From the NCBI GenBank assembly GCA_044377725.1, contig JBILYM010000001.1:1-58539 (forward strand): a stretch of DNA of 58,539 nucleotides. The letters run 5' to 3'. The stretch comes from Phycisphaerales bacterium. Lineage in GTDB: Bacteria > Planctomycetota > Phycisphaerae > Phycisphaerales > SM1A02. Positions 15,175-46,679 of this stretch are shown here, one piece after another. Position 1 is the stretch's first letter; each line of letters starts with the position of its first letter. The notes under the pieces were generated by a model, which worked only from the letters and a program-made list of their open reading frames with translations, was not told the DNA's origin and made no database searches. Made by a program: the position numbers and the translations under genes.

Positions 15175-15179
15175 TCACA

Positions 15180-31031: not shown

Positions 31032-31116
31032 GTTTCGATAGAGTTGCTGTCTGCTGTTCTTGACATTCTCAAAGCGGCATCCGGTTTTGCCCTTGCATTG
31101 GCCGGGAAGGAACTTC

Positions 31117-32202
31117 ATGAAAGAGCCACGAAATCTGACTTCTACGGCGTGGTGCAAGGCGGCCTGTGTGGTTGCCCTTGCAGCGTCGGCACTCACACCG
31201 ATTGCGTTTTCTCAAGCGACAAAGAAGCCGCCCGCCGTTGCTACGGTAGTTCCACCAGCCTTTGACACACTTAAAATCATCCCGGTGGACGGGTGTCCAT
31301 GCGGTAGTTATAAGCCGAATGATGTTGCGGAGAAGCGCTATCAGGAGTCACGTCAACTTACGGCGGCGGGCAAATTTGAAGAAGCACTAAAGGCTGCCAA
31401 TGATGCCTTAGGCTTCGACAAAGGTCCTATTTATCGCAATCAACAAGCCGTTGCACTTTTCAACCTAGGTGTTGCGCGGGCAGGCATTGCGGGTGACAAG
31501 AAGCGCATTGACGAGGCACTACGGGTTTGGCAACAGATGTCTCGCGGTAAGAGTGTCGCCTGCGAGATGACCTTCTACGCCAATGCACTCTGTCGGCTGC
31601 AGCGATGGGATGAAGCTCTGAAAATTGCAGATCGAGCCATTGCCGATTGCAATGTGAGTGCTGACGCCAAGGTCGCAAAGTCCATCGCCCTGCAGTATCT
31701 CGGTCAGGCGCCGGATGCCCTCCGCTTTGCGGACCAGGCAATGAAACTGGATCCCAAGTCGGTGGCTGCGCTCTACCAGTATGCATCGTGTTGTTACGAC
31801 CTTGCGAAGTACGAGGATGCCCTGCGTGCGGTCGCGCTCGCGATTGGACTTGATCCTGCCGATGGCCAAAGTCGAACGCTGCTTGCCATGGTCCATCTTG
31901 CACTGAAGCATCCCGCCGAAGCTCAGGCAAACGCAATTCAGGCCGTTGGGATGACCTCCGACCCCGCATTCCTCATGGCGGCGGGGGGAGTGCTTTCGGA
32001 ACTTGGTCAGTATCAGCAGGCGGCAGCCGCATACGACAAAGCACTGCAGGCTGGATTTGATCCAGCCGCCATGTATGCGCGTGCAGTGGCTCTGCATGCC
32101 GCCGGCAACCGAGCGGAGGCAGTCAAGGTGCTCCATGATTTGGAAACTCAGTCAGCCGGTTATCTCAATGTTCAGGAGTGGCTCAAAGCGCTTGGTGGCT
32201 AA
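31117..32202 (+). CDS. Locus gene L: exported tetratricopeptide-repeat (TPR) protein
   Basis: GGAAGGA RBS lies before the ATG at 31117. The signal peptide is AACVVALAASALTPIAFSQA. Multiple 34-aa A/L/Y/G-patterned repeats are present (for example AEKRYQESRQLTAAGKFEEALKAANDALGFD and ALKIADRAIADCNVSADAKVAKSIALQYLGQAPDALRFADQAMKLDP). Confidence 0.75.
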   Translation: MKEPRNLTSTAWCKAACVVALAASALTPIAFSQATKKPPAVATVVPPAFDTLKIIPVDGCPCGSYKPNDVAEKRYQESRQLTAAGKFEEALKAANDALGFDKGPIYRNQQAVALFNLGVARAGIAGDKKRIDEALRVWQQMSRGKSVACEMTFYANALCRLQRWDEALKIADRAIADCNVSADAKVAKSIALQYLGQAPDALRFADQAMKLDPKSVAALYQYASCCYDLAKYEDALRAVALAIGLDPADGQSRTLLAMVHLALKHPAEAQANAIQAVGMTSDPAFLMAAGGVLSELGQYQQAAAAYDKALQAGFDPAAMYARAVALHAAGNRAEAVKVLHDLETQSAGYLNVQEWLKALGG

Positions 32203-32270: not shown

Positions 32271-33353
32271 ATGCCTGACGACGATTTTGACATCGATCTT
32301 TCTCCAGAGGTGCCACCGCCGTTCGACTGGAGCGCGGTACAGAGTCCACAGCTGGATCTGGGGGCTATAGCTCCTCCTCCTCCTCCGCATGGCGCTCCGG
32401 GCACTCATGGGGCGCAAAGTCAAGTCCCTCCCGCGCCGTTCGTGCGAGACCGTATTGTCGTGCTTGGTCGGCGAAAGGCTGGCAAGTCGGTGTACTTGGC
32501 ACGCCTATACGAGCGTCTGTGGAACTCAAAGGGTGAGCTGCACATGGCGGCGGTCGATGGGCGAACACATACGTCCTTGCTGCTTCAGATCGATGCGATG
32601 ATGAAAAAGCTATGGCCAGCGGCGACGGAAGCCATGGCGCATTTCAAGGTGGACATTACCTATCGACAAGATCGGTATTTGATGATTGCCCCCGATTATC
32701 CAGGTGAAATCTTCAAGCGTGCATTTATGGAGGATTCGGACGAGCCGCTTGTTAAGGATCTCTTGGAAACGTGTGATCGCGCCGCAGCTGTCATCGTCTT
32801 AGTGGATCCGGAGGTCAATATCACCGGGAATTTGATGGAGCAGACTGAGCAGGATTATGGTTTGGTAGCAGCGATCAAACGGATTCGTGAGTCGCCTGGC
32901 GCCGAATTCGTCCCTATCGCGATCACGTTGACGAAGTGTGATGTCTTCCGAGCAGAAATCGAGGAGGCAGGAGGGCCAGCGAAGTTCGTCAAGGAGAATT
33001 ATCCCAATCTCTGTCGTGTGGCGTTTCCGGCGGGGCGTAGCGGAATGGTCTTCGCGTGTGCGGCTGTTCACGTGAAGCGCGACGGTATGGAAAAAGAGAT
33101 TCCGGATATGTCCAAGCCGCCCAAGGGTTTGATCGAGCCCATTGAATTCTGCTTGCGTGCAATGCGCGCCAATCGGCGAGAGTCACAGCAGCGTCAAGCG
33201 GAGAATGCGCAACGAGTATCGGTAGAGGCCGCTCGTGTTGCAGAACAAGAACTTGAGCGGAAGGATCGATTTGTCTCAACCGCAACTTTATTGGGATCGA
33301 TATTTGTGGCGATCGTTGTGGTGGTAATCCTTGTCGTCATGTTGATGAAGTAG
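32271..33353 (+). CDS. Locus gene M: tail-anchored TRAFAC-type GTPase
   Basis: G1 GRRKAGKS (32466-32489), G3 MIAPDYPGE and G4 ITLTKCDV. The C-terminal TM helix is TLLGSIFVAIVVVVILVVMLMK. The N-terminus is Pro-rich. Confidence 0.75.
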   Translation: MPDDDFDIDLSPEVPPPFDWSAVQSPQLDLGAIAPPPPPHGAPGTHGAQSQVPPAPFVRDRIVVLGRRKAGKSVYLARLYERLWNSKGELHMAAVDGRTHTSLLLQIDAMMKKLWPAATEAMAHFKVDITYRQDRYLMIAPDYPGEIFKRAFMEDSDEPLVKDLLETCDRAAAVIVLVDPEVNITGNLMEQTEQDYGLVAAIKRIRESPGAEFVPIAITLTKCDVFRAEIEEAGGPAKFVKENYPNLCRVAFPAGRSGMVFACAAVHVKRDGMEKEIPDMSKPPKGLIEPIEFCLRAMRANRRESQQRQAENAQRVSVEAARVAEQELERKDRFVSTATLLGSIFVAIVVVVILVVMLMK

Positions 33354-33371: not shown

Positions 33372-35618
33372 ATGAACATTTCTGCCGATTCACACCTGTT
33401 CGGATCACGCAAGGGCTACGAATGCCTGGCGAAGTCGGCTGGCGTCACGTCCGGTGAGGACCGCCAACTTTCTGAATTCGGATTCGGTCAAAGTACAGAT
33501 GAACATTTTTTGTATGGACTAGCCACTCAGCCCACTGCATTTGGCCGCCCATTGAGTAGCGGTCGAGTGGCGATTACGCGCGTGATGGTTGGCCCTCTTG
33601 ATGATGGCGGTCGCCCCACTCTTGAGCGACGCACGATGATCGTCTCGGCCGCAGACTATTTGGCGATTCGACACGATTTGAAAGCGTTGATCAAAGACAA
33701 TGTTTGGGGTTCGTCGGCGTTCGCCGGTGGATTGCCAATACGGGTTCCAACCGCGGGAATGAGCCGCCGAAGTGCAGCGGACGCGTTGGCGTGGCGCATC
33801 TTTGACGCATGGGTCATCGGCATTGAATCCCGTCCGCCGAGGGGGGTTGTCATCGCTCCTGCAGCTGCTGGTGGCGACCAGGCACGAGCGGCAGACGCAG
33901 TCTTGACATTGGCTAGTCAATTGGCTGACGAAGACGCCGTGAAATTCAAGTGGGGCATCCGGCTTCTATCTCCCATCGAATGGTCCGATGTTCTGACGCT
34001 CTCGTCTGCTGGCGTGATGGATGGCCGACGCCCAGTGCACGGAATTGGCGCTGCCTGCGTCAAGCCAGAAGTCCAACGCGCCCAAGCTGCGAGTCCTGGG
34101 ATGCTGCCGACGGTGACATCGCTGCAGCGTGCAGCGATTCAGGAGGCGGTAGAGTTGGTTGACGACGGCATGTGGGATGGCGTTGGCGGTGGGGGCATCA
34201 TTCCGCCGCAGGGACTTTCTATGAAGAGGAAGCAACCCAAGCGAGCATTGATCATCGCGGCGATCGTCCTTCCGATCATTGGTCTGACCGCGCTTGGGAC
34301 TGTGAGTTGGTTGATTTGGAGGAAGCCTGGGGGAAGTGCGCCTGCGCCGGCGACCACTGATACGGTGATGCGCGAGCCCGCTCCTGCATCTGGTTCGGAT
34401 CCTGCTGCCCCCGCCAATCCAGCCGCTCCTGCATCGGGTTCGGATCCTGCTGCCCCCGTTACTCCAGCCGCTCCTGCATCGAATTCGGAACCTGCTGCCC
34501 CCGCCAATCCAGCCGCTCCTGCATCTGGTGCGAATCCTGCTGTCCCCGTTACTCCAGCCGCTCCTGCATCTGGTTCGGATCCTGCTGCCCCCGTTACTCC
34601 AGCCGCTCCTGCATCTGGTTCGGACCCTACTACCCCCGTTACTCCAGCCGCTCCTGCTGAGCCGAACGCCCCTAAATCGCCACTCGATCTGGGCGCATCG
34701 GAGGGCCTAATCAATACTTTGACGGATGACATCACGGTGAATGAGATCATGAAGTTTCCGGAGTACGAGATTTGCCAGAAAGAAGTGGATGCACTCAAAG
34801 AACTCGTCGGACTATCGGGATTGACGAAGGGCGGCAAGCTAATGTTTGATTTAGCAGGGATGGCTAAGAAGGCTGAGAAGGCAGATCGTGACCGGCAAGT
34901 ATTTAAGAATCCGCACGAGAGTTTGGCCGAAAAGGAATTTCGCGACAAGATGGACGCACTAAAGGGCTGGAACCACACGCAGTTATCGCAAGCGCAAAAA
35001 CGCGTGTTGAACTTTCAGCGCGCGAAGATTCAGGACCTTCGCGTATCTCCCCATTCGTTTGCCCAAACTAAAATGATAGACATGGAGAGCTTGAGCAAGT
35101 CAATTAAAGATTCGCTGAAGAAACCATCCGATCTTTCATCACAAGAGCGGAGCGACACAATGCTAACCATCATGCATTTTTGTTTGCGGCTATCGATTTC
35201 GCAGCGGTTTGACAGCAAACAGAGCAAAGCGGCATCAGCACAGTCCGCTACTTTGAGTGAGGTAAAGCGAGTTCTAGATGAAGTTGTGGCAGTTTTTCCA
35301 AGCGATGACGGGGCCGCTAGGGAGGCGCTGAACTTTATCCGGCCATTACTTCCGTCTTCCCTTACTAGTAACGAGGGGTTGATTGGACAGGGGATTTATT
35401 GGGAAAAGTACTCGATGACCAAGTCAGACACCAAGAGATTCCTGCGCAGTTCGTATTGGCAAACTCTTGAACTCAAAGGCGATGACATCTCCTGCAACGA
35501 TTTGTTCGAGGCATTGATTGATGCCGTATGTCCACCGGACCTCCGGGTGGGCCAAGTGGCAATTACTTTGAATGTCTTCCGAACTGCGATGGGCTACCCC
35601 ACGGCGAAGGCAAACTAG
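33372..35618 (+). CDS. Locus gene N: GAP1-N-like domain - TM helix - 6x15-aa Pro/Ala repeat - ~300-aa C-terminal domain (CTD-X) shared with gene O
   Basis: The N-terminus has GSRKGYECLAKSAGVTSGE and LDDGGRPTLERRTMIV, similar to gene Q. The TM helix is ALIIAAIVLPIIGLTALGTVSWLIW. The tandem repeat lies at 34380-34649. The C-terminal region from KFPEYEICQKEVDALK onward is closely similar (well over half of residues identical by eye) to the C-terminus of gene O. Confidence 0.7.
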   Translation: MNISADSHLFGSRKGYECLAKSAGVTSGEDRQLSEFGFGQSTDEHFLYGLATQPTAFGRPLSSGRVAITRVMVGPLDDGGRPTLERRTMIVSAADYLAIRHDLKALIKDNVWGSSAFAGGLPIRVPTAGMSRRSAADALAWRIFDAWVIGIESRPPRGVVIAPAAAGGDQARAADAVLTLASQLADEDAVKFKWGIRLLSPIEWSDVLTLSSAGVMDGRRPVHGIGAACVKPEVQRAQAASPGMLPTVTSLQRAAIQEAVELVDDGMWDGVGGGGIIPPQGLSMKRKQPKRALIIAAIVLPIIGLTALGTVSWLIWRKPGGSAPAPATTDTVMREPAPASGSDPAAPANPAAPASGSDPAAPVTPAAPASNSEPAAPANPAAPASGANPAVPVTPAAPASGSDPAAPVTPAAPASGSDPTTPVTPAAPAEPNAPKSPLDLGASEGLINTLTDDITVNEIMKFPEYEICQKEVDALKELVGLSGLTKGGKLMFDLAGMAKKAEKADRDRQVFKNPHESLAEKEFRDKMDALKGWNHTQLSQAQKRVLNFQRAKIQDLRVSPHSFAQTKMIDMESLSKSIKDSLKKPSDLSSQERSDTMLTIMHFCLRLSISQRFDSKQSKAASAQSATLSEVKRVLDEVVAVFPSDDGAAREALNFIRPLLPSSLTSNEGLIGQGIYWEKYSMTKSDTKRFLRSSYWQTLELKGDDISCNDLFEALIDAVCPPDLRVGQVAITLNVFRTAMGYPTAKAN
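34380..34649 (+). repeat. 45-nt x 6 in-frame tandem repeat (APASGSDPAAP[AV][NT]PA), plus a partial seventh unit
   Basis: Units start at 34380, 34425, 34470, 34515, 34560 and 34605, each beginning gctcctgcatc. A few substitutions per unit alternate between ccgccaatcc and ccgttactcc variants. Confidence 0.9.
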
Positions 35619-36640
35619 ATCGATGCTGATTTGCCGAGTACCGCAGTAATGCATAGGAGCGACTCCGCGGCAGCGGGGGTCGCGCGGTTCCTGCAGAGCG
35701 GAGGGCTACGCCGATGTCGCTATCCAGCGCTGCGTTAGCGCCACCCCATCGATTGTCGGAAGTCTGCCAACATTTGCTTCAGGCTGTCACCCTGTGAGGC
35801 TGTTGGGCAAACAGCACAAATCAATCCTTCGAACAAATCGTTGCAGGAGATGTCATCGCCTTTGAGTCCAAGAGTTGGCCAATACGAACTGCGCAAGAAT
35901 TTCTGGGTGTCTGGTTGCCTCATCGAGTACTTACTCCAATACACACCCTGTCCCGCCAACCCGCCGTTACTACTTGGGGTAGACGGAAGTAATCGTTGGA
36001 TAACGTTCAGTACATTCTGAGCAGCCCCGACATCATCGCTCGGTCCGGCCGCTACAACTGCTGCCAAAACTCGCTTTATGTCACTCAAATCAGCGGACTG
36101 TGCTACCGCAGCTTTGCTCTGTTCGATGTCAAATCGTTGCGAAACTGATAGCCGCAAACAAAAGTGCATGATGGACCGCATCGTGTCGATCCGCTCTTGT
36201 GATGTCAGATCGGATGCTTTCTTCAGCGAATCTATAATTGACTTGCTCATGCGATCCATGTCTAGCATTTGAGTTTGGGCGAATGGTCGCGGAAGTTCGG
36301 GATAGGTGAACAGCGCCCGGCTCTGGAACTTCAACACACGATCTTGAGCTCGCGATAGTTGCGAGGGACTCCAGAGCTGTAGAGCGTCCATCTTGGCGCG
36401 AAACTCGGCGGCGGCATGGCTGCGCACGGTATTCGGGCTGTCTGGCCACTTTTCTCGAGTATCAAGTTCGCGTTTAGCGTTGATAGCCATGTTTGGTAAA
36501 TCAAACGCCAACGTTCGCTTACCGTTTTTCGCCACTCCCAGTAGTCCGACGAGAGACTTCAGTGCGTCCACTTCTTTCTGGCAAGCCACGTACTCTGGAA
36601 ATTTTAGTACATCCGATTTTCCGATGTCATCACTCAATTT
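34720..36640. repeat. Imperfect ~0.9-kb inverted duplication formed by the 3' ends of convergent genes N and O
   Basis: The protein C-termini are paralogous. At DNA level there is a 39-nt perfect reverse-complement match (35471-35509 vs 35829-35867), and several other stretches differ by only a few substitutions by eye (for example 35171-35235 vs 36105-36170). The antisense ORFs 35030-35227(-) and 36078-36272(+) translate to near-identical peptides. Confidence 0.85.
35659..35683. terminator. GC-rich hairpin in the 116-bp convergent spacer (possible bidirectional terminator)
   Basis: gcgactccgc-ggca-gcgggggtcgc forms about a 10-bp stem with one bulge and one G-U pair. There is no clear U-tract on either strand, so this is weak as an intrinsic terminator. 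Confidence 0.3.
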
Positions 36641-37648
36641 ATGGAAAAGGGTAATTGCCGGTTGGTTTAGCGCGAACTTCGGCACTGGTAGGGCCTCTGG
36701 TTTAGACCCAGGCTTACGCGGAGCAGTCGTTGGCTTCCGCGCCGGCTCGACTATCAGTGCAGGTGCATTAGTGGGCGTCGGTGCAGGCGCGGGTGTTGGT
36801 TCCAGCGCGGGGTTCGGTTCCGGAACGGCCTCCCGTGCAGGCGCGGGTGTTGGTTCCGGTGCGGTCATCGATTCCGGTGCGGGCGTTGGTTCCGATTCCG
36901 GTGCGGCCGTCGGCTCGGGATCAGGAGCGAACTCAGGATCCGGAGCCCGGGCACGCGTGGTGGTGCGCCGAGGATTGGGTGTGGGCTTGATCCCACTAGC
37001 AATGAGATTCAAGATCAAGAGCGCCACCCAAACTGCGGCGGCGACACCAATGGGCTTGATCCATTGTTGGCGCGCGTACTTGTTTCCAAACTGAGTTTGG
37101 ATGTACAGCACCTGGGAGCGCGCTGAGATGAAGTACCAACTGAATAGAACGCCGAGATACACACCCAGCGGCGACATGGATAGCAAAGTCGGCACCGGAG
37201 GTTGGAGCAATTGACCGACTGTAAATGCGAGAAAGGCAGCAAAGCCGACATAAGCCCAGATCATCGACTTGGATGCTTTCTGCGGCTCGTTGAGAGCTTT
37301 CCAGTTCTTCGCGTGTAGCCATGCACCAAATCCAACACTGAAGACGAGGCTCCAGTTCACCGCTGCAGTGGGATTCCAAAGGGGTGGGCTGATGCGTCCG
37401 CCCCCACGGGAGGCAGTTGGCGGGAATCGATGGCCGCCGGCATTGGTCCACAGTTCTGGAACAGTAGACGCTGGCACCCAGCCGGCAAATCCCGCTCGCC
37501 ACATCATGGTTTCCGGCTCAATTCGACCTGCGGCAATCATGCCTTGAATTTGGTGGTCATCGAGCGGGCCAGCTCTCTGCCGATCGTTGGACATGAAGTA
37601 CCAAGCAGCCACGTTGGGATCCGATCCGAATTGAGGAACAGCATTCAC
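35735..37648 (-). CDS. Locus gene O: GYF_2 (DUF4339) domain - 4 TM helices - Pro/Glu/Thr-rich repeat - CTD-X paralogous to the C-terminus of gene N
   Basis: The GYF-like motif is WYFMSNDRQRAGPLDDHQIQGMIAAGRIEPETMMWRAGFAGWVPASTVPELW. Four hydrophobic segments follow, then APDPEFAPDPEPTAAPESEPTPAPESMTAPEPTPAP. The C-terminal KFPEYVACQKEVDALK...GDDISCNDLFEGL matches gene N. GTG start at 37648. Confidence 0.7.
   Translation of the reverse strand: MNAVPQFGSDPNVAAWYFMSNDRQRAGPLDDHQIQGMIAAGRIEPETMMWRAGFAGWVPASTVPELWTNAGGHRFPPTASRGGGRISPPLWNPTAAVNWSLVFSVGFGAWLHAKNWKALNEPQKASKSMIWAYVGFAAFLAFTVGQLLQPPVPTLLSMSPLGVYLGVLFSWYFISARSQVLYIQTQFGNKYARQQWIKPIGVAAAVWVALLILNLIASGIKPTPNPRRTTTRARAPDPEFAPDPEPTAAPESEPTPAPESMTAPEPTPAPAREAVPEPNPALEPTPAPAPTPTNAPALIVEPARKPTTAPRKPGSKPEALPVPKFALNQPAITLFHKLSDDIGKSDVLKFPEYVACQKEVDALKSLVGLLGVAKNGKRTLAFDLPNMAINAKRELDTREKWPDSPNTVRSHAAAEFRAKMDALQLWSPSQLSRAQDRVLKFQSRALFTYPELPRPFAQTQMLDMDRMSKSIIDSLKKASDLTSQERIDTMRSIMHFCLRLSVSQRFDIEQSKAAVAQSADLSDIKRVLAAVVAAGPSDDVGAAQNVLNVIQRLLPSTPSSNGGLAGQGVYWSKYSMRQPDTQKFLRSSYWPTLGLKGDDISCNDLFEGLICAVCPTASQGDSLKQMLADFRQSMGWR
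36781..36930 (-). repeat. Degenerate ~54-nt-period in-frame repeat encoding the Pro/Glu/Thr/Ala-rich spacer of gene O
   Basis: gtgcaggcgcgggtgttggttcc occurs at 36781-36803 and again at 36835-36857 (+ strand). ggttccg/gattccggtgcgg-type subunits follow. Confidence 0.7.
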
Positions 37649-37756: not shown

Positions 37757-40700
37757 TCAATCCACTCGGTAGATAAAGGAATAGGAAGGACCGGAAGAAC
37801 CGCCTTCCGCGAGCGTGCCACCTTCAAGCCGGATGGGCTTCAGACTCCATGCCCCTCCGGCGATGTCGTGTTCGAGAAGCATGAATCGGCCATTCAGGTT
37901 CGATTCTGAGGCTCGGCGCCGTGCCTCGCCAGGCACTTTGGGGAGAAGCAGGCCAGCAATCGTGGTTGCGCGTGCGGACTTCGATACACCAGCCCATTGC
38001 GCTGATCGACTCTGCACGGCGGCTTTCAGGTCGGGAATGGAGTCGAGAAACAACTGCGCAGAGCGGCGTAGATTCTCACGCTCTGCCTTTGGATCGGCCT
38101 TTGAAAGTGACAGGGCTACCCAGTCTGCTTCAGTCAACTTCAACGCTTCAGGGCTGTGCAGCACGCTCTCCAATTTGCCACACAATGACTGATCGATACC
38201 CTCAGGGAAGGAGAGGCTTTCGACGAATACCTGGAGAGCGTGCACTATGAAGTTGGCCAATCCCAGAATTTCGGTGGCTTTAGTCTTGGATTTGACTGAC
38301 ATCCGTGCACTCTCGATTGCACCGAGCCACGCATTCTGCGCCACGATGGCATCTGAGCTCCCGAACGCGGGCGTTGCTTGAGTGAAAGCGTCACACCATG
38401 GCGGGACCTCGCGTCGCGCGCTTCCGTTCACGTCACCGCTTCGTACTTCTATGTTGGCCTTGAGTTCGGTCAGTGGCACCGTCAGCTCCTTGCAGCTGAA
38501 GAGTAGCCCTGCAAGGGATCCGGTTCCTGGTCCGCCGTCGCGCATGAACGCCCAACGATTTTTTGTCAGCGAAAGCTGCTGGATAGACAAGAGACCAGTG
38601 TCTTTGAGTTGGGCGAGTGCGCTGAGACCAACGAGAGCTCCATCGTTTGCGGAGATAGTTTCACACATAGCGATGCAGCCTGTAGCGGCACTGGTGTATG
38701 GCGACGTTGGGAAGCTATGCAGATGAGCTTCGAGGGACTTACGAAATGTAGCTGCTTCTTGCGAAGAGGCAGGTATCGCTATTCCCGATGACTTTGCGGA
38801 TGTGGCAGGTCCGCCAAGCACCACTTCGCGCCAATGCTGCAGTGCGAGCGCTACTTGGGCCATATCTCGCGTCTCATCTAATACCGCGGTGGGCAGCCCC
38901 AGCGCTTTCAAAGTTTCGGGCTGGGCCAAGAGTTCAGTGATTCGCTTCGAGAATTCCTCCTCGCTTGTCGGTGTCTTGGAGAGACGAGCGAGCGCGCTTT
39001 CCGCAGTTGCGATCGCGAGTGTCGTCCGTTCGATAGCGCCGACTTGTTCGCCTAGTCGGGCGGATACATCTGTGGCCACTTGCCGTTCTGGGTAATTCGC
39101 TGGAATCTTGCGGACAAAGTCATCACAGCGCTTTCGAATGGCGTTGGCCTGCGACATCCATGAGATGCTTTGTTCGCTACCTGCTGCTCCGACCGGAGCA
39201 CCCAACGCATCGGCATCACGTCTAAGAGTTTCGAGCTCTTCAGTGATCGGACGCCGCCGGTCTGCAATTCGCTTGACTTCTTCAGCCTCGACAGTCTTGA
39301 GTAGTTCTTCAGCCTCGGTTCGTTCTGTGGGTGCTAGTTTCGCGGTTGAGTCAGAGTTAACCGACAGCGCGTCGCGGATGGATTTCTTGAGCGCGGTCAG
39401 GCTTGCATCGTCAGTCGCTGGATCCTTGCTGGCTGCGACAGTGCTTTCCAGCAAGCGTCGTACTTCCGCTCGACGGGCGGAGTTTGCAAGTTCGGCCTGC
39501 GCGACGACACGTTCGGCCTCAACCATTACTGGATAAGAAAGTGCCCATGGGGTAGTGGACTTGATAGCAGCGAGTCGATTTTTTGCCCCGGCTAGATCAC
39601 CTGCCTTCGAAAGCCCTTGAACGTCGGCAGCCATCACTGCTACTTCTGCTTGTTTTTGGGCAGCCGCCATCGAAATGCTGAACGTCGTGATCGCCGCGGC
39701 AATCGCGACAAGCACAGCGGCAATGATCAGTCCAATGATGATCCTTCGACGCGTGATCGCAGCACTTTGGACGCGCACGAAGCGTTCCGCGAGATCCTGT
39801 GGAACACCAATTCCGTAGGACTCGACTGCAGAGCGCAGACGTGACAACTCTAGTTGGCTCGTTTTGCGATCGAGACCGAGACGCAGTTCAGTACAGGCGT
39901 TGTTGTGTGCAGCTTCGACGCGCAGTCGGGCAAGCTCGGTTTCAGACCACTCGATCGCCTCCTTGGTGCGTTCTCGGAATTTATCTCCGGGGCTGCAGCG
40001 GCGCTCGCGTTCAACGGCATCGACCTCTTCTGAGAGCGATCCGACCAGCATTAAGTCTCGCCGCGCATATGCAGCCTCAATCCGCGTGGCTAGTTTGGCA
40101 TACAACTCGGCTGCTTCTCGTCGACGTTCCCGCGAGATCTCGGACTGAAGCCAATCGTAGAACTCAGCGGACAACTGGGATTGCCACCCGAGCCCCTCGA
40201 TCGCATCCAATGCGTCGACAAGTGTCTGGTGTTCGCCACGCATGGAGGCGGCCCTGCACGTCGATTCAAGTGCGGCGAGTGCCTCTGTCTCATAGCGTTT
40301 GGCAAGCTGTTTTAGGGCGGGATTACGAGGTGCCGCGGCTAGGAGCGTCTGCAGCTGCTGCATTCGAGTTGCTAGCGATTGTCGGGCAAGTACGGAAGTC
40401 TGAAATCGTTGGACCAGTTCATCAAGCGACGAGGCGTCGCCGACCGCGTCGGAGAGCGCGACGAATGCGCGCTCATCAATGCGGCTATTGACCGAAATCC
40501 CAGCCATATTGCATGCCTGATCCCACTCCAGTCGCCCTTCGTTCATGTTCAACTGAAATGCAACCTTGCAAAGTTCCGGGTAGGACTCGTTCACCGATGC
40601 TGCCTCAACAATGAGTCCACGGCTTGCCCACTCGCTCAGCATGCGCAGGTAGCGATTACAAGTGACAATGCGCAACTCGAGCATCTCACGCACTTCTTCG

Positions 40701-40813
40701 ATGCGCTCCTGCAGCGTCCCTGGAGTGCATGCGTCACGCACGATCGATATCAATTCACTCGCTTCTGCTGGTGTAATCTCGGGATAGGCATTCATGTGGT
40801 TGGATTGATTCAT
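37757..40813 (-). CDS. Locus gene P: 1018-aa single-pass membrane protein (helical/coiled-coil cytoplasmic N-domain, large helical ectodomain)
   Basis: The ATG at 40813 lies 13 nt after the stop of Q. The TM helix IIIGLIIAAVLVAIAAAITTFSI is preceded by RRR. No recognisable family. Confidence 0.65.
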   Translation of the reverse strand: MNQSNHMNAYPEITPAEASELISIVRDACTPGTLQERIEEVREMLELRIVTCNRYLRMLSEWASRGLIVEAASVNESYPELCKVAFQLNMNEGRLEWDQACNMAGISVNSRIDERAFVALSDAVGDASSLDELVQRFQTSVLARQSLATRMQQLQTLLAAAPRNPALKQLAKRYETEALAALESTCRAASMRGEHQTLVDALDAIEGLGWQSQLSAEFYDWLQSEISRERRREAAELYAKLATRIEAAYARRDLMLVGSLSEEVDAVERERRCSPGDKFRERTKEAIEWSETELARLRVEAAHNNACTELRLGLDRKTSQLELSRLRSAVESYGIGVPQDLAERFVRVQSAAITRRRIIIGLIIAAVLVAIAAAITTFSISMAAAQKQAEVAVMAADVQGLSKAGDLAGAKNRLAAIKSTTPWALSYPVMVEAERVVAQAELANSARRAEVRRLLESTVAASKDPATDDASLTALKKSIRDALSVNSDSTAKLAPTERTEAEELLKTVEAEEVKRIADRRRPITEELETLRRDADALGAPVGAAGSEQSISWMSQANAIRKRCDDFVRKIPANYPERQVATDVSARLGEQVGAIERTTLAIATAESALARLSKTPTSEEEFSKRITELLAQPETLKALGLPTAVLDETRDMAQVALALQHWREVVLGGPATSAKSSGIAIPASSQEAATFRKSLEAHLHSFPTSPYTSAATGCIAMCETISANDGALVGLSALAQLKDTGLLSIQQLSLTKNRWAFMRDGGPGTGSLAGLLFSCKELTVPLTELKANIEVRSGDVNGSARREVPPWCDAFTQATPAFGSSDAIVAQNAWLGAIESARMSVKSKTKATEILGLANFIVHALQVFVESLSFPEGIDQSLCGKLESVLHSPEALKLTEADWVALSLSKADPKAERENLRRSAQLFLDSIPDLKAAVQSRSAQWAGVSKSARATTIAGLLLPKVPGEARRRASESNLNGRFMLLEHDIAGGAWSLKPIRLEGGTLAEGGSSGPSYSFIYRVD

Positions 40814-40826
40814 CGCCTTGGTTTCT

Positions 40827-41858
40827 TCATCGACGCAACATCAGCAGTACGACAGTGGTGGCTATCGCTAGCAGCAGCACCACAGCCGTGGTGATCGCTG
40901 CGTACAGATAAACAGTCGATGTTCTGTGTTCGGGTGGGGCGGGGTTGGGCGCTGATCCGGATGGATTCCTCCGATTCATGGTTGATGCCACGGAGATCGG
41001 AGCGGTTGATTGTTCGTCGATGACGGCCACTGGTGGGGCAAGACCGCTCAGGTCGAGCACCGGTTCCTGACGCCGGGCGCCGGCGGCGGGGGTGCGGCGC
41101 GGCGGTTCCGTCGGACCAATTGGCGGGCTCGCGGTGCCGCGTGCGTTGGTCCAATCAGCAATCGGACGTGACGTGCCGGGTACGCCTTGTTGTAGGAGCA
41201 CGAGACTTGTCGCGATGCTGCCATGGGAATCCTCCGTCGTCGCGATGCGCAATGCTGATGGTCTGAGAGACTTCTCAACGATCGCGGCGATGATTGTCTG
41301 GACTGGTGCATTGCGCGGTATCAGTAATCTCGCGGGTTCGTTGTGTGTTCGGGAGCCAATTGCGGCAAGGTGCGCTGCCCAACCTTCAGCATGATCGGTG
41401 AGGGCTTGGAGTGCGGCATGTGCTGAATCGAGGATGGCGGCTGGTGCCGCGGTTGGGGCATGTCGCAATGGAAGGCGCCGAGGCTGCCCTTGGAAGTTCT
41501 GGCAAAAAACGCCATCATCGAGCAACACCGCGGCGATAGATGCGGCGGTGAGCTCCGTGCCCATGAGTACAAGATGATGCGCAAGGCGGGCTGGTCTGCC
41601 AGTGTGGTCGGCTACCACAGGCACGATCCGTGATAAGACCATGGCGGGACCGGTGGCAGTCGTGACCGGCCACAGCCTGAGCACTGCATGGGCGGCGGCA
41701 TCGCTCGATTTCTCAATCCGCGCAACGGTGGTTGCAGATGCGTTCGCTAGCGCTGCAATGAGATCTGCAGCCATCCCCTCGCTACATGCAACTGTGGTGT
41801 ATCCCGAGCGGTCGTCGAAGAGTCCTTTCGGGGCAGAAGTGTGGATGAGCTCGAGCAT
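40827..41858 (-). CDS. Locus gene Q: tail-anchored GAP1-N-like protein (GTPase-associated)
   Basis: The start is taken at MLELIHTSAPKGLFDDRSGYTTVACSEGM (ATG 41858, 13 nt after the stop of R). The ORF-track start at 42008 would overlap R by 137 nt. ADHTGRPARLAHHLVL resembles the DxxGRxxxxxxHxLV element I recall for GAP1 N-domains. The C-terminal TM helix is VYLYAAITTAVVLLLAIATTVVLLML. Confidence 0.6.
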   Translation of the reverse strand: MLELIHTSAPKGLFDDRSGYTTVACSEGMAADLIAALANASATTVARIEKSSDAAAHAVLRLWPVTTATGPAMVLSRIVPVVADHTGRPARLAHHLVLMGTELTAASIAAVLLDDGVFCQNFQGQPRRLPLRHAPTAAPAAILDSAHAALQALTDHAEGWAAHLAAIGSRTHNEPARLLIPRNAPVQTIIAAIVEKSLRPSALRIATTEDSHGSIATSLVLLQQGVPGTSRPIADWTNARGTASPPIGPTEPPRRTPAAGARRQEPVLDLSGLAPPVAVIDEQSTAPISVASTMNRRNPSGSAPNPAPPEHRTSTVYLYAAITTAVVLLLAIATTVVLLMLRR

Positions 41859-41871
41859 GGAATCGTCAACA

Positions 41872-43101
41872 TCAGGCGAGCATTGGGAACACCTTGGGAT
41901 CCGACATGGCGATCGCAAGCACGAAGGGCATTTCCGCCCATCGGGGTCGGACGTCTGCAGCACGCAGTTTGAAATGGCCGTCTGCGTCGCGGGTTGGCGA
42001 AGTACCAAGCGCGCTCGCCGGAACGAAGATGACCTTTTGTGCCAAGATGTTCGCGGCGTTTAGAAACTCTGGTGCCGTCTCTCGCAGTGCCTCGCGTGCG
42101 AGTTGGTCGACCTCTTGAAGTTTGGCTATCAACCGCTTCCGTCGGGGTATCAATGCGTCCGGGAGGTCGAGTTCGGACCAGTCCGCACCCAATGCCTTGT
42201 CCGCCCAAACGTCGGCCTTTGTGAGTGCAATGATCAAGGGAATAGGGATCGGCGCCGTCGGATCCAGTGAGCGGAGGCGGCGAACACGGGCGATAGCTTC
42301 GGTAAGTACAAGTTCCTGTCGTTCGTGCCGGCCGGTGTGTGGCGCATCAAATCCGTCGGCGAAGCGATCACGGAATCGTGCGTCTTGCAGCGGGTCGAAC
42401 ACAGTAACGATCGCGCTGCTCCGTTCGAGATGGCGCGTCGCGATTTCTGCACCAGCAAACTGACTGTCCGGGAGAAAATGCTCGCCAGCATTGTCATACA
42501 GAACCATCACCGACCGGCGGGTTTCATCTTTGTGGCGTGTCACGAAGTACGACGGCTTGGTGAGCGTTTCAGTCTGGCCACCGATGCGCACCGAGCGATA
42601 CAGATCGTTACCGCCAACATCGGTCTTCGGCAGTGTGACGTCTGCGGAAGGATCGCGCGTCGCAAACAGCAAGCTCTCGTTGCGGTGTAGCAGTGCGTTG
42701 AAACGAGGATCGGCATCCACGATCTCCAAGCCGAAGTCCGCTGCCCGCTGTGCAAGACCCCACATTCCAGAGGCGAGCAGATTGGTCTTTCCGGATCCTG
42801 GCGCGCCGACAACTGAGATTGGAATCTGACGGAGTTCCAGCAACGCCCGTGGGAACTCAATGTGGCAACGCGGACAGGCTATGCGTGTGCACCGACCGTC
42901 GTTTGGATCGATCGCATTTCCGGATGCATCGAAGCGCATCGCGCGGAATCGCAGTTGCTCGGCCGGCCCGGCGATTGGGTCACCGCGGAGTTGGACGCTC
43001 TCTGCAATGAAACGCACTTGGGTTGGCGGAAATTCACGCCAACAGTTCGGGCAGACGACAGATCGCCTAAGGGATGTACCGGAATCCTTGGCCGTGGCCA
43101 T
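41872..43101 (-). CDS. Locus gene R: Zn-ribbon + TRAFAC-type GTPase
   Basis: CPNC...CPRC (C17/C20, C76/C79) precede G1 GAPGSGKT (42784-42807), G3 VLYDNAGE and G4 IIALTKADV. No TM helix. Confidence 0.75.
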   Translation of the reverse strand: MATAKDSGTSLRRSVVCPNCWREFPPTQVRFIAESVQLRGDPIAGPAEQLRFRAMRFDASGNAIDPNDGRCTRIACPRCHIEFPRALLELRQIPISVVGAPGSGKTNLLASGMWGLAQRAADFGLEIVDADPRFNALLHRNESLLFATRDPSADVTLPKTDVGGNDLYRSVRIGGQTETLTKPSYFVTRHKDETRRSVMVLYDNAGEHFLPDSQFAGAEIATRHLERSSAIVTVFDPLQDARFRDRFADGFDAPHTGRHERQELVLTEAIARVRRLRSLDPTAPIPIPLIIALTKADVWADKALGADWSELDLPDALIPRRKRLIAKLQEVDQLAREALRETAPEFLNAANILAQKVIFVPASALGTSPTRDADGHFKLRAADVRPRWAEMPFVLAIAMSDPKVFPMLA

Positions 43102-43199: not shown

Positions 43200-45317
43200 T
43201 CAACGCGTCTTTATGGGCTGGGGAGGCAATTTGAATTGCGCATCCAAATCCTTCGGCACAGGGATTGCCAGTACATGACTAAGGCGCGCTCGCGAGACCC
43301 AGATTCCATTCGTGTAGTCACGCCCTAAAGCACTGATGAGTGATTTACGTTTCTCAGGGTCGGCTTCGGCCCCGAACATTTCAAGCAACTGTTGAACGGA
43401 TGGTTTTTTATCGATGCCATGTGTCAAATGCTCGCTTCCCACCGCAATTTTTTGTTGACCCGACTCCACTGCTCTTAGGAAACAATTGAAGTCGCGGCTC
43501 TCGGTGGACGACAGCGATTTGTCGGCGATTTCTGCTAAATCGGGGTACATCTTCAGAATGTGTGTTCGAAACTCCGGTGAACAAACCTCGTCGTCTCCAA
43601 GTCTCGTCGTTTCAAGTCCCCACATGTTGCCATCTTCACCCATAAAGGCCGCAAATGCGTGCCCGGGCGGCATCAAGATCATGCTCGATAGGCCCATTTT
43701 CTCAAGAAAACTACAAATGAGGATCGTGCCGTCAACGCAGTTAGCGTTTTGCGACAACAACGTCTCGTGGATGCTCCTGGTCTCCTGAGCGCTGTGATCG
43801 ACCGAACCTGGTAGCGAGGAGTATCGCAAGCCGCGCGCCTTCAATTCTCGCCACAGCAGAAATACCGCGAAGAAGGACCGGTGGGCACCTGCGCCCCCGG
43901 ACGCGGACATCCCAGTGCGCTTCGCGAGAGAGCACTGATTTATTTGGTTCAAGATTCTCTCGACCCAAGGGTGACCCTCGTTGACCATTCCTACGAATCC
44001 GAGACGCATCGGATAAGAGGTTTCGACAAGGTCGGGCGGCATGATCGTGACGGTTTCAAGCATGCGCTCGTCTTCTGACCCATCACCGTATTTGACACTC
44101 ACCGACATGGTGATGGTTTCTGGCGCAGTTAACTTCGCGAGTTCGTCTATGTCCCACTGGGGTTGGAGCCCGATTTCCCAAAGGTCCGAATCATGCTCAT
44201 CCTTCGATAGCCAAACACATTCTGGATGTTCTCCTTCAGCGAGGTGGACCGATTCCTGTTTAGTCGCTTGTCCACCAGAGAGAAGTCTCCGACCTGCAGC
44301 GTTGCGTAACTCAATCTCAACTCGAACATTAGTGCCGGTCGGCGCATTTGTGAAGTACACGCTGAATACGGGTCGAGTGGCATCGAGCCAATCCGATTGG
44401 CTGATGAATTGCGCTCTGCAGACCAGTTCGAGGGGGTTGGTCTCGGCTCCGTCCGCCGCTCTTGACATTGAAAATCGATCTACGAACCAGTCGACCTCTT
44501 GACCGGCTGGAACCGCCAATCGTTCCGCTTCTACCTCAGCAAGTGCGATTTCCGAGTTAGCGTAGACCACTTTGTTAAACGCCAGTTTGGCGCCGATTGA
44601 CTTGGCGAGACCCGTTGTTCCACGTTGAATTGCGACCGTCGCCTGCGAGGGTTGTTTGGGCGCTGGCGCTGGCGCTGGCGGTGGCTCTGGAGCTGGTGCT
44701 GGAGCGGGTGTTGCTATCGCACTGGGCACGCCTGCTGCGGGGGCGGCGGCACGTGCGACCGTCGCGACGGGGGTCGCTTTCGCCACGATTGGTGCCTTGG
44801 TCTCCGCTCCACCAACGGTTCCGGACGCCGTTCGGTTGCCTGCGGAGTTCTGCGGCGCGGGCTCAGATACCGCGATGCTCGTTGGTTGTTCGAGCGGAGG
44901 TGCTGGCCGCCTAAAGAACATGGCAGCACCGATTCCGACGGTGGCAACCAGTGACAACATTCCGATCCCGATCGCTACGTAGAGCACTCCCCGCCCGCGT
45001 CTCCCCGCCGACGGTTGGTTGATCGGGGGCGCTAGAAATGGTGCTGCTACTGATGATCGGGCAGGGGGTTCCAATACCGGACCTAGCGAAATAGATCCGC
45101 GATCCGGGGGTGCCCGCTCAAACGCAGGCAGAGACGCTGATGCTGCAGCCCGTGGCTGCGGAGGCGCGGATGGACGATGTGCGCGTTTGTGCAGATTTCT
45201 GGCTGTATGAGGAAGAACCGTTCGACGCCCGCAACGTTTGCATCGCACTTCTTCCGCAGTCGTCCCCTCGGGAAGAATCAGGGACGCTCCACAGTGTTGG
45301 CAATCAACGGTGTTCAT
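43200..45317 (-). CDS. Locus gene S: Zn-ribbon - TM helix - Pro/Ala-rich spacer - ectodomain ending in a transglutaminase/papain-like Cys-His domain
   Basis: CQHC...CKRC lies at the N-terminus. The TM helix is VLYVAIGIGMLSLVATVGIGAAMFF. PAPAPAPEPPPAPAPAP follows. NANCVDGTILICSFLEKMGL...PGHAFAAF...WGLETT gives Cys527 (codon 43737-43739) and His553. Confidence 0.65.
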   Translation of the reverse strand: MNTVDCQHCGASLILPEGTTAEEVRCKRCGRRTVLPHTARNLHKRAHRPSAPPQPRAAASASLPAFERAPPDRGSISLGPVLEPPARSSVAAPFLAPPINQPSAGRRGRGVLYVAIGIGMLSLVATVGIGAAMFFRRPAPPLEQPTSIAVSEPAPQNSAGNRTASGTVGGAETKAPIVAKATPVATVARAAAPAAGVPSAIATPAPAPAPEPPPAPAPAPKQPSQATVAIQRGTTGLAKSIGAKLAFNKVVYANSEIALAEVEAERLAVPAGQEVDWFVDRFSMSRAADGAETNPLELVCRAQFISQSDWLDATRPVFSVYFTNAPTGTNVRVEIELRNAAGRRLLSGGQATKQESVHLAEGEHPECVWLSKDEHDSDLWEIGLQPQWDIDELAKLTAPETITMSVSVKYGDGSEDERMLETVTIMPPDLVETSYPMRLGFVGMVNEGHPWVERILNQINQCSLAKRTGMSASGGAGAHRSFFAVFLLWRELKARGLRYSSLPGSVDHSAQETRSIHETLLSQNANCVDGTILICSFLEKMGLSSMILMPPGHAFAAFMGEDGNMWGLETTRLGDDEVCSPEFRTHILKMYPDLAEIADKSLSSTESRDFNCFLRAVESGQQKIAVGSEHLTHGIDKKPSVQQLLEMFGAEADPEKRKSLISALGRDYTNGIWVSRARLSHVLAIPVPKDLDAQFKLPPQPIKTR
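44659..44710 (-). repeat. Hexanucleotide-type (GCTGGC-like) in-frame microsatellite encoding (PA)n/(PE)n
   Basis: The + strand reads ggcgctggcgctggcgctggcggtggctctggagctggtgctggagcgggtg. Confidence 0.7.
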
Positions 45318-45434: not shown

Positions 45435-46679
45435 TCACCGCAACGCCACCGCCTCCGCATCATCAATCGCAACCGTTGAACCAACGTGTCCGATGTCCCA
45501 ATCGGAGGTCGATTCCACCAGCACCATCGGGGTGTTGTTCACAGTGATGCATTGCTCACCGGGCTGCGTGCTGCAACCGATCGCCAGGATCATGTGCGGC
45601 GTATTGCCGCTCATGCAGTAGACGAGCGCCAGCGGCGTGTCGATATCGATGCTGCGAATCAGCGTTGCCAGGAGCAGGCTCTTGGTATCGCAATCGCCAC
45701 CGTCGATGAGCGCCTCGGCGGGAGTGCGTAGGCCGCAGCGGGTTTTGCCGTCATCAACAAGATCATGGCGCTGATCATCGACTTTGTGATATGGAACAGC
45801 GTTTTGCACATAGCTAGTGAGCGCTTCGATACTTTGCCGAGCGGATGGCTGCATGCGCGGGTTGTTCCAGTAGGCATTGATGACGTCAATGGCAACGCCG
45901 CGCAGGGCGGGCGCCGATTGGTCAAGAATCCACTGGTGATCCGGGGCAATTCCATCGGCAGTGCACGTGATTCCGTGCTGCGTCAGTGTTTGCGTGACGG
46001 CTTGTTCAATGGCCGCAAGGGCGCCTGGAGTTTGGTGGTAGGTGATGGATTCCAGCGCCGCGGCGGGGAATCCAAAGTGGTGCTCCAGCGCATCGGCCCG
46101 TGCGATGTCGATCGCGGATGGGATGTGGAACGCGGTGGGCACGCATTCGGCGCGCATGTACTTGGTGTCCGCATCGCGTCGGACGATGCATGACTGGTCG
46201 TCGGTCCAATCGACGAAGGCGATGTTGCGGAAGCGAGCACGCGGCGCGGAGAACTCGTGCGGCGATTCGTACCAGGCGCGGAAGTTAGCGTTCTCTGGAA
46301 TGGCCAGAATGCTGGCGAGCACTGCAGCGATGTTGACTGCACTAGCGGCAGCGTTTGAGTCATTCGCAGTGGTGGTGTTCGCCGCGCCGGATGTCGAGGG
46401 TGCGGCGGGAACGGTTGGAACGTTCGGGGCGTTTGCCGGCGAATTCGTGTTCGGTGCAGTGGCGACGGCCGGATCAATCGCACGCGGCGCGCGGCGCGCC
46501 ATGGAACCCTTGCGCGTTGGGCGAGCGCGGGCGGGTGAACGAGCACCGCTCGGCGTAGACATCGGCGTGGAAAGCGCGGGACCGCCGGGCGCAGTGGCTG
46601 CGGGCGGAGCAGCGGCGAATGCCGGCTCGATGGTGATCACGGCGAGAAGGATGCCGGACGCGATGGTGGCGATACGCAT
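45435..46679 (-). CDS. Locus gene T: secreted protein with a transglutaminase/papain-like Cys-His domain (paralogous in motif pattern to S)
   Basis: Signal peptide MRIATIASGILLAVITIEPAFAA, followed by a Pro/Ala/Asn-rich region. DGGDCDTKSLLLATLIRS...GNTPHMILAIG...VLVESTS gives Cys330 (codon 45690-45692) and His362. Confidence 0.6.
   Translation of the reverse strand: MRIATIASGILLAVITIEPAFAAAPPAATAPGGPALSTPMSTPSGARSPARARPTRKGSMARRAPRAIDPAVATAPNTNSPANAPNVPTVPAAPSTSGAANTTTANDSNAAASAVNIAAVLASILAIPENANFRAWYESPHEFSAPRARFRNIAFVDWTDDQSCIVRRDADTKYMRAECVPTAFHIPSAIDIARADALEHHFGFPAAALESITYHQTPGALAAIEQAVTQTLTQHGITCTADGIAPDHQWILDQSAPALRGVAIDVINAYWNNPRMQPSARQSIEALTSYVQNAVPYHKVDDQRHDLVDDGKTRCGLRTPAEALIDGGDCDTKSLLLATLIRSIDIDTPLALVYCMSGNTPHMILAIGCSTQPGEQCITVNNTPMVLVESTSDWDIGHVGSTVAIDDAEAVALR

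Follow-up and report, generated by a model that had tools for sequence, protein, structure and literature searches.

GTPase-centric conflict systems of bacteria have been delineated computationally by Kaur, Burroughs, Iyer and Aravind (Kaur et al., 2020; eLife 9:e52696, PMC7159879). In the class that is relevant here, a TRAFAC GTPase with a glutamate in its Walker B motif, often present in two paralogous copies, is followed downstream by a gene for a GAP1 protein, and N-terminal Zn ribbons are found in about 60% of the DO-GTPase family. Systems of the GAP1-N2 type occur in planctomycetes, with a GAP1 that bears C-terminal transmembrane (TM) segments and a planctomycete partner that combines a GYF domain with a TM-rich region; a rapidly evolving protein with fibronectin type III (FNIII) repeats is also typical of them. 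The same study described variable domains that are fused to the GAP1 C-terminus or separately encoded, set out the logic of a constant core combined with a rapidly varying non-enzymatic module, and predicted that, among bacteria that are multicellular or aggregate, DO-GTPase/GAP1 systems constitute a major class of regulated conflict systems. In this study, we analysed a locus of this kind in a stretch of 58,539 nucleotides (nt) from a Phycisphaerales bacterium (assembly GCA_044377725.1, contig JBILYM010000001.1, positions 1-58,539, forward strand; hereafter, the window). The locus has a minus arm, transcribed in the order S2, S1, R, Q, P and O, which converges on the 3' end of a long operon of the plus strand, whose last genes encode a TPR protein, M and N (Table 1). 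We found that R and Q are, as judged from their sequences, the core pair of the DO-GTPase/GAP1-N2 class, which was published from computation. The pair is recognisable as a member because the Pfam families of this class (PF19993, PF19975, PF20013 and PF20014) and the gene features match the description of Kaur et al.

From its motifs, R is a soluble TRAFAC GTPase with a four-cysteine zinc site and intact G1-G5 motifs. The first-pass annotation of this DNA, made from the letters alone, had read CPNC...CPRC, GAPGSGKT, DNAGE and TKAD in R and no TM helix. All of these motifs are present, and their key residues, that is, the cysteines C17, C20, C76 and C79 and the G-motif residues marked in Table 1, are invariant in an alignment of 40 full-length homologues, as is K159-T160 at the switch-I position; C71 is not. 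The cysteines make one four-Cys site, not two separate ribbons. A hydropathy scan shows no hydrophobic segment in R, in agreement with the absence of a TM helix. Homologues of R fall into 990 representative clusters at E<=1e-3, and 33 of the 40 aligned family members match the Pfam family DO-GTPase2 (PF19993) at E<=1e-3, the best of them at 5.7e-10. A PDB profile search with R returned only Der/EngA GTPases, over the TKAD region (E ~3e-5). Screening of the locus proteins with PADLOC gave only a marginal mad8 match for R (E 0.003), which is a weak defence hint.

The second protein of the pair, Q, is a short GAP1 in which an N2 domain and an M-like domain are followed by a disordered, Pro-rich linker and by a tail anchor. 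Its start is the ATG at codon 51 of the open reading frame (ORF) 40827..42008, and the resulting N-terminus, MLELIHTSAP, is common to all 11 database homologues. This start leaves exactly 13 nt between the stop codon of R (41872-41874) and the ATG of Q (41858), the very distance given in the first-pass annotation, and the gap between Q and P is also 13 nt. Q-type proteins are rare, forming 11 clusters among 5.8 billion proteins, and the homologues come from Phycisphaerales/Planctomycetota metagenome-assembled genomes (MAGs). The earlier description of Q as GAP1-N-like holds well above the Pfam cut-off (Table 1), and the GAP1-N2 match is found in 12 of 12 Q-family members. In the AlphaFold2 (AF2) model, the block-mean predicted local distance difference test (pLDDT) score is mostly above 90 over residues 1-210; the N2 domain (1-113) has the topology beta-beta-alpha-beta-beta-beta-alpha and is followed by a second alpha/beta domain (~131-235), the disordered linker and a TM helix. 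Residues 1-214 are colinear with the canonical planctomycete GAP1 of locus L015 (641-671 aa; E 2e-20), which Pfam divides into GAP1-N2 and GAP1-M (residues 179-261). Since this alignment runs into the GAP1-M region of the L015 protein, the second domain of Q is probably a divergent GAP1-M. L015 itself (CAMCLK010000010.1) is labelled 'Candidatus Kuenenia stuttgartiensis'. Within the linker, pLDDT falls below 50 around the motif LDLxGLPPPV, for which the family alignment shows an invariant P276 and a conservation of >=90% at L270. The C-terminal TM anchor noted in the first-pass annotation is borne out, as the segment is strongly hydrophobic, forms a helix in the model and is kept hydrophobic across the family. 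A PDB sequence search with the Q family was empty or trivial. PAS and Lst4-longin domains were considered as candidate folds for Q; the topology fits, and the matches (E 0.07-0.3) are too weak to call.

The first-pass annotation had regarded R-Q as a second Zn-ribbon GTPase plus tail-anchored GAP1-N pair of the M-N type, with its domains redistributed, and this module call is right. M scores above the Pfam threshold for both DO-GTPase1 and DO-GTPase2, and R and M share 25% identity over 130 aa (E 0.001). M is tail-anchored and devoid of a Zn ribbon, whereas R is soluble and carries one; hence, the redistribution between the two modules covers the membrane anchors too. The start of M is Pro-rich (32271-32450; EVPPPFDW, APPPPPHGAPG), and its orthologue in L007 is Pro-rich as well. 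The other half of the comparison, between Q and N, is less direct. BLASTP of Q against N is not significant (E 0.7), and therefore profiles were needed. The N-terminus of N reaches 12.3 bits (E 0.18) against Pfam GAP1-N2, below the cut-off of 24; two N-family members, P0018 and P0014, match the same profile region at E 7e-4 and 7e-3, also below the cut-off, and the other five members scanned give no match at E<=1. When the N-domains of the Q and N families are compared with hhalign, the alignment spans 103 columns (probability 65%, P 5.9e-5) and brings the GY, TR[IV] and D..GRP motifs into register. Moreover, when the GAP1-N2 hidden Markov model was run against 1176 ORFs from the window and all loci, N-family proteins ranked first after the true members. 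The profile-profile comparison thus favours homology, and the N-terminus of N is probably a divergent GAP1-N2. We claim this homology only for the first ~105 residues because the second domains (Q 125-240 against N 120-262) show no hhalign signal (E 0.81). In the earlier description, N fuses a GAP1-N-like domain to a C-terminal domain, CTD-X; the CTD-X part stands, and the N-domain part is only moderately supported by the scores above.

The surroundings of R-Q are strongly conserved. R-Q-P is kept in every relative whose contig covers it, R-Q was never seen without P, and the order S2-S1-R-Q-P is found in relatives whose contigs reach upstream. In addition, R-Q-P and M-N are convergent neighbours in every contig that is long enough, that is, in the window, L006/L010, L001/L002/L007, the ERZ1426840 contig and the 3300059473 contig. 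These represent at least four lineages, and Q identity across them is only 30-42%. Because M-N recurs as the convergent neighbour of R-Q-P, the locus holds the two paralogous GTPases to which 'double-GTPases' owe their name, each with its own GAP1-type partner. One of the relatives, L010 (CALQCP020000011.1), is 94-99% identical to the window proteins and is labelled 'MAG: Chitinophaga pinensis', which looks like a mis-assignment because the other matches are Phycisphaerales/Planctomycetota MAGs. The distant canonical systems L015 and L016 encode a GTPase, a GAP1 (N2+M), a protein of 373-384 aa, a protein resembling the N-terminus of P, and a GYF/TM protein. R-Q-P-O of the window keeps the L015/L016 order, and since those operons end in a GYF/TM protein, the GYF/TM part of O looks like an old module partner that acquired CTD-X in the window lineage. 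The position of O is filled differently in other relatives. In L001, L002, L004, L007, L011 and L013, the gene after P encodes a MotA/ExbB-family protein (Pfam E 2e-8; e.g., L001 13191-15866), accompanied by two conserved proteins of ~277 and ~319 aa, and on the M-N side the relatives carry a vWA protein of 424 aa and a protein of 422 aa. A tblastn search of the window found no match to the MotA_ExbB, p277 and p319 proteins, and O sits in that position; the 424-aa and 422-aa proteins have no match in the window either.

CTD-X links the two arms of the locus. As had been claimed, it is common to O (334-636) and N (446-742), with 59% identity and E 1e-108. A survey of databases, which the first-pass annotation had proposed as a check, found no copy other than those in N-type and O-type genes, which belong to the corresponding locus of the close relatives L006/L010, L008 and L009, and none in an unrelated context; short database CTD-X 'proteins' are fragments of these genes. 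The other full-length N-family members (7 of 7, P0014-P0020) carry unrelated C-terminal domains. The CTD-X alignment has two invariant cysteines, C273 and C285. In N, the N-domain and CTD-X are separated by a TM helix (293-311) that is flanked N-terminally by KRKQPKR. Because this helix and a Pro linker precede it, CTD-X of N is predicted to be most likely extracytoplasmic, and the GAP1-N2-like domain cytoplasmic. The linker of N also contains a 45-nt tandem repeat (x6.2, 88% matches, 34378-34657) that encodes a 15-aa unit. The end of N is, moreover, a variable cassette. At the nucleotide level, the window and L006 are 92-100% identical in M, O, P, Q and the 5' part of N, and identity drops to 25-78% in the segment given in Table 1, with a divergence boundary that falls at the TM-coding region of N. 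In a comparison of the window with L006, L008, L009 and L010, the N copies of CTD-X form at least four allele groups, which are 53-60% identical mutually and ~60% identical to the O copy. In the same strains, the O copies are 87-95% identical. Between strains that are ~97% identical elsewhere, the N copies share 53-56% and the O copies 92-95%, and the proteins R, Q, P and O as a whole keep an identity of 92-100%. This pattern agrees with the constant-core logic of Kaur et al. and suggests a sensing or recognition role for the N cassette. As this variable cassette adjoins a conserved paralogue in O, an N-O relationship is at least as plausible as a Q-O relationship.

The latter point bears on an argument of the first-pass annotation, which took the fusion of the two domains in N and their separation in Q and O as a Rosetta-stone indication that Q and O, with P between them, act together. 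The conclusion is probably right, and the argument itself is weak. As a recurrent pattern, the fusion and split do not hold up: the fused (N) and split (Q, O) states are found only in one lineage and one locus type, and they amount to a single event because CTD-X is confined to one locus in one narrow lineage. The argument is further weakened because a TM helix separates the fused domains of N, probably placing them on opposite sides of the membrane, and because a common CTD-X argues at least as well for N-O. That Q, P and O probably act together is better supported by gene order, since R-Q-P is conserved in all relatives and the order GTPase-GAP1-X-P-like-GYF is found in the distant systems.

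Regarding the remaining partner proteins, P consists of a helical N-terminal half, a TM segment (358-376) and a C-terminal part of ~640 aa. Its homologues (1013-1020 aa) lie directly after Q in every relative examined, and P has no match in Pfam, NCBIfam or PDB. In O, the GYF_2 domain is recognised by Pfam (E 8.8e-18) and also matches the GltJ model NF033761 locally, over the GYF domain only (E 5e-9; 35.8 bits against a cut-off of 450). GltJ matches on N and S1 in NCBIfam were disregarded because they fall on Pro-rich low-complexity stretches. The region 94-218 of O shows four hydrophobic peaks of unequal strength, and its charge distribution fits three or four TM segments. A degenerate 18-nt repeat (x6.8) occupies the Pro-rich linker of O (36773-36894), where the window and L006 differ by an indel. 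Homologues of S1 are found upstream of R in L001, L002, L003, L004, L011, L012 and L013. Residues 387-563 of S1 match the NCBIfam model NF058533, antiphage_ProA (profile positions 63-240 of 1903; E 4.8e-16), another weak defence hint; a literature search on the NCBIfam 'anti-phage protein ProA' found nothing, and a PDB sequence search with S1 was empty or trivial. S2 homologues with 36-52% identity head the operon in L001, L002 and L011. Relatives carry two tandem S2 paralogues and two S1 paralogues. In L011 (3-479), an S2-type fragment is 94% identical to S2 of the window, although identity in this relative is no higher than 72% for R, 42% for Q and 40% for P; this could be mosaicism or recombination between lineages. 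Altogether, nearly all components of the locus are membrane proteins.

Table 1. Genes of the locus and features within them, with positions in the window; residue numbers refer to the named protein.
Feature	Position	Strand	Description
R	41872-43101	-	409 aa; soluble Zn-ribbon DO-GTPase (predicted)
R zinc site	42865..43053	-	CxxC knuckles C17/C20 (CPNC) and C76/C79 (CPRC), ~55-residue insert
R P-loop, residues 99-106	42784..42807	-	GAPGSGKT; G99, G104, K105 invariant
R Walker B/switch II, residues 203-207	42481..42495	-	DNAGE; D203, G206, E207 invariant
R guanine-specificity motif, residues 294-297	42211..42222	-	TKAD; K295, D297 invariant
Q	40827-41858	-	343 aa; tail-anchored short GAP1
Q GAP1-N2 domain, residues 3-130	41469..41852	-	Pfam PF20013, E 4.6e-15, 56.3 bits against cut-off 24
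Q second globular domain, residues ~131-230	41169..41468	-	L015 alignment and AF2 model
Q motif LDLxGLPPPV, residues 267-279	41022..41060	-	in Pro-rich cytoplasmic linker
Q C-terminal TM anchor, residues 322-340	40839..40895	-	hydropathy 2.59; AF2 helix 313-342
P	37757-40813	-	1018 aa; single-pass membrane protein
O	35735-37648	-	637 aa; GYF_2 (16-66), 3-4 TM segments (94-218), Pro-rich linker, CTD-X (334-636)
S1	43200-45317	-	705 aa; Zn-ribbon, TM (111-129), ~570-aa C-terminal part
S2	45435-46679	-	414-aa membrane protein, first gene of the minus arm; TM segments by hydropathy
TPR protein	31060-32202	+	just before M in the plus operon
M	32271-33353	+	second DO-GTPase; Pro-rich N-tail, C-terminal TM anchor (340-358)
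N	33372-35618	+	GAP1-N2-like N-domain (~4-110), conserved to ~260, TM (293-311), linker, CTD-X (446-742)
Hypervariable segment, N linker and CTD-X	34300..35680	+	identity to strain L006 drops exactly here

N and O are convergent, and their CTD-X-coding ends lie 116 nt apart. The plus-strand operon that ends in TPR-M-N opens with a vWA protein (10262-12286, +), followed by a SrfB-family protein (12283-15174; E 1e-94) and a SrfC/Virul_Fac-family protein (19188-21941; E 5e-30). This SrfABC-like gene set (10262-21941, +) lies upstream of the DO-GTPase pair in the window, and such genes do not precede M-N in L007. A scan for promoters and terminators returned no more sites than in shuffled sequence.

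We consider it fairly probable that R-Q is the switch pair of a membrane-bound DO-GTPase/GAP1-N2 system that couples to a conflict or recognition response at the envelope. In such a system, Q would recruit R to the inner membrane and couple its GTP cycle to P, S1, S2 and O. The latter may act as an adaptor whose cytoplasmic GYF_2 domain binds Pro-rich segments, by analogy with GltJ, where a cytoplasmic bacterial GYF domain binds a Pro-rich sequence of AglZ (Attia et al., 2024; Sci Adv, PMC11135422). Candidate ligands would be the LDLxGLPPPV linker motif of Q and the PPPPPHG tail of M. CTD-X of O might pair with, or work beside, CTD-X of N on the extracytoplasmic side and so link both modules, with the N copy offering a strain-variable sensing or recognition surface. 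The output would be a conflict/defence or self/non-self response at the envelope, in relatives probably by way of the MotA/ExbB-like trio. In its boldest form, both modules together with P, S1, S2 and O, plus the motor in relatives, would constitute one trans-membrane receptor for surface recognition or immunity, in which CTD-X of N is read against CTD-X of O and the result relayed inward through two membrane-tethered GTPases and GYF/Pro contacts. We regard this extension as distinctly improbable; if true, the receptor, directed at phage, predator or kin, would use GTPase switches in pairs, and no counterpart of it has been described.

Several observations weigh against a membrane-bound conflict or recognition system built around R-Q. 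Regarding class membership, R scores 25.8 bits against Pfam DO-GTPase2, 1.2 bits short of the cut-off of 27; Pfam GAP1-M was found in none of the 12 Q-family members at E<=1; and Q is without GAP1-C, as only the disordered Pro-rich linker and the TM anchor follow after about residue 245. A fold search of the AF2 model of Q against PDB gave nothing significant (best E 2.5e-3, TM-score below 0.2). The structure prediction for CTD-X is poor (pLDDT 62, all-alpha), and both a fold search and a PDB profile search with it were empty. Moreover, because the TM count of O is ambiguous between three and four, the CTD-X domains of O and N may face different compartments. Sequence profiles revealed no fn3 or other repeats in any of S2, S1, P and O with the threshold relaxed to E<=10, and the minus arm of the window contains no recognisable effector domain. 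As to genomic context, housekeeping genes flank the locus, unlike typical defence islands, and a search of plasmid and phage collections found no relatives of R. Finally, every protein-protein contact in the model is inferred, and a literature search on these families retrieved only the computational paper, with no later paper and no experimental work.

Some of these same observations would suit a locus that encodes an envelope machine under GTPase regulation, serving in surface transport, motility, secretion or envelope remodelling, by analogy with Agl-Glt of Myxococcus rather than with immunity. In Agl-Glt, a motor of the MotA/TolQ type is under the control of the small GTPase MglA, its regulator and the ZnR/GYF membrane protein GltJ. 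The chromosomal syntenic context with its housekeeping flanks, the absence of plasmid or phage copies of R and the prevalence of membrane proteins are all consistent with it, as are the TPR, vWA and SrfB/SrfC-like genes of the plus arm, the local match of the O GYF_2 domain to the GltJ model and, in the relatives, the MotA/ExbB-like protein with two conserved partners directly after P. However, the window lineage has lost this trio and yet keeps R-Q-P intact, at 97-100% identity between strains, so the motor is dispensable for the core. The GltJ match covers just the GYF domain and stays far from its cut-off, no Glt or Agl homologues were detected, and the sharp limits of the hypervariable cassette are more in keeping with conflict or recognition than with a housekeeping machine. 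On balance, an envelope machine outside immunity seems unlikely to us.

A different question is what the common CTD-X means. It may reflect one duplication or recombination that copied an extracytoplasmic cassette between the neighbouring 3' ends of N and O. In that case it would carry no specific message about Q-O, and its functional meaning, if any, would concern N and O, through pairing of the CTD-X domains or with O as a conserved paralogue or donor copy for the variable cassette of N. Its restriction to N- and O-type genes of one narrow lineage, the unrelated C-terminal domains of other N-family members, the close convergence of the two genes, the position of the divergence boundary at the TM-coding region of N, and N alleles that differ from one another (53-56% identity) about as much as from the O copy (~60%) all point in this direction. 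Against it, N and O show no trace of recent gene conversion and stay at ~60% identity; the proposal is, moreover, compatible with a Q-O cooperation that synteny supports independently. We hold it as a tentative possibility that deserves to be taken seriously. By contrast, it is very improbable that R-Q is an autonomous two-gene system and that its proximity to M-N is coincidental. The two arms are indeed separate convergent transcription units, and R and M are only distantly related, but the convergent arrangement persists in lineages whose Q proteins have diverged widely, both pairs belong to the same DO-GTPase/GAP1-N2 class and R-Q does not occur without P, so that synteny largely refutes this idea.

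With R-Q read as the switch pair of a membrane-bound system, the locus is of interest in several respects. It offers a compact, all-membrane version of DO-GTPase/GAP1 with a clear parts list (R, Q, P, O, M and N), which suits first experiments. It also holds two natural designs of one pair, with the anchor on the GAP1 partner (R-Q) or on both proteins (M-N), a candidate docking code of GYF domain to Pro-rich segments, and a natural allelic series of the variable domain in otherwise near-identical strains. The link of this subfamily to a MotA/ExbB-type motor in relatives is absent from the original description and echoes Zorya and Agl-Glt.

Comparison with known systems places the locus more precisely. 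The anti-phage system Zorya combines a MotAB-like stator (ZorAB) with soluble effectors, and the relatives of the window likewise pair a MotA/ExbB protein with membrane partners and cytoplasmic NTPase-type components. However, the window has no MotA/ExbB gene and no ZorC- or ZorD-like domains, and PADLOC gave no Zorya match in the locus; as tblastn finds no stator genes in the window, we do not read the window itself as Zorya-like. With polymorphic toxins and recognition proteins, N shares a constant N-terminal part (95%) and a sharply bounded, strain-specific C-terminal part (53-56%). It differs from them in that no toxin fold and no adjacent co-varying immunity gene were recognised, O being conserved and not co-varying, and in that the variable domain stands behind the TM helix of a GAP1-like regulator. 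The MglA/MglB/GltJ switch of the Agl-Glt gliding machinery of Myxococcus resembles the locus in a GTPase switch coupled with an inner-membrane protein that has a cytoplasmic GYF domain, and in Zn-ribbon elements; the MotA/TolQ/ExbB-type motor of Agl-Glt has its like only in the relatives of the window. Nevertheless, R, with its 409 aa, is a DO-GTPase and does not belong to the small Ras-like GTPases, no test run identified GAP1-N2 as a Roadblock protein, Glt/Agl genes are lacking and O is like GltJ over the GYF domain only. We therefore treat the likeness to Agl-Glt as a working analogy, not as membership.

The agreement with the GAP1-N2 systems is much more extensive. In both cases, a TRAFAC GTPase combines DxxGE with an N-terminal Zn ribbon, and the gene immediately downstream encodes a GAP1-N2 protein with a C-terminal TM segment. 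Further common points are two paralogous GTPases per locus, one of them with a TM segment, a planctomycete host, a partner with GYF domain and TM-rich region, and a strain-variable domain that is either fused to a GAP1-type protein or separate. The differences lie in Q, which lacks GAP1-C and a Pfam-detectable GAP1-M; in N, which stays below the Pfam threshold; in an FNIII-repeat component, which was not found; and in P, S1, S2 and the MotA/ExbB-like trio of the relatives, which are not mentioned by Kaur et al. (PMC7159879). In addition, the two convergent operons provide each GTPase with a GAP1-type partner of its own. Altogether, the finding itself is largely a rediscovery, and the window locus is a distinct variant of this known class.

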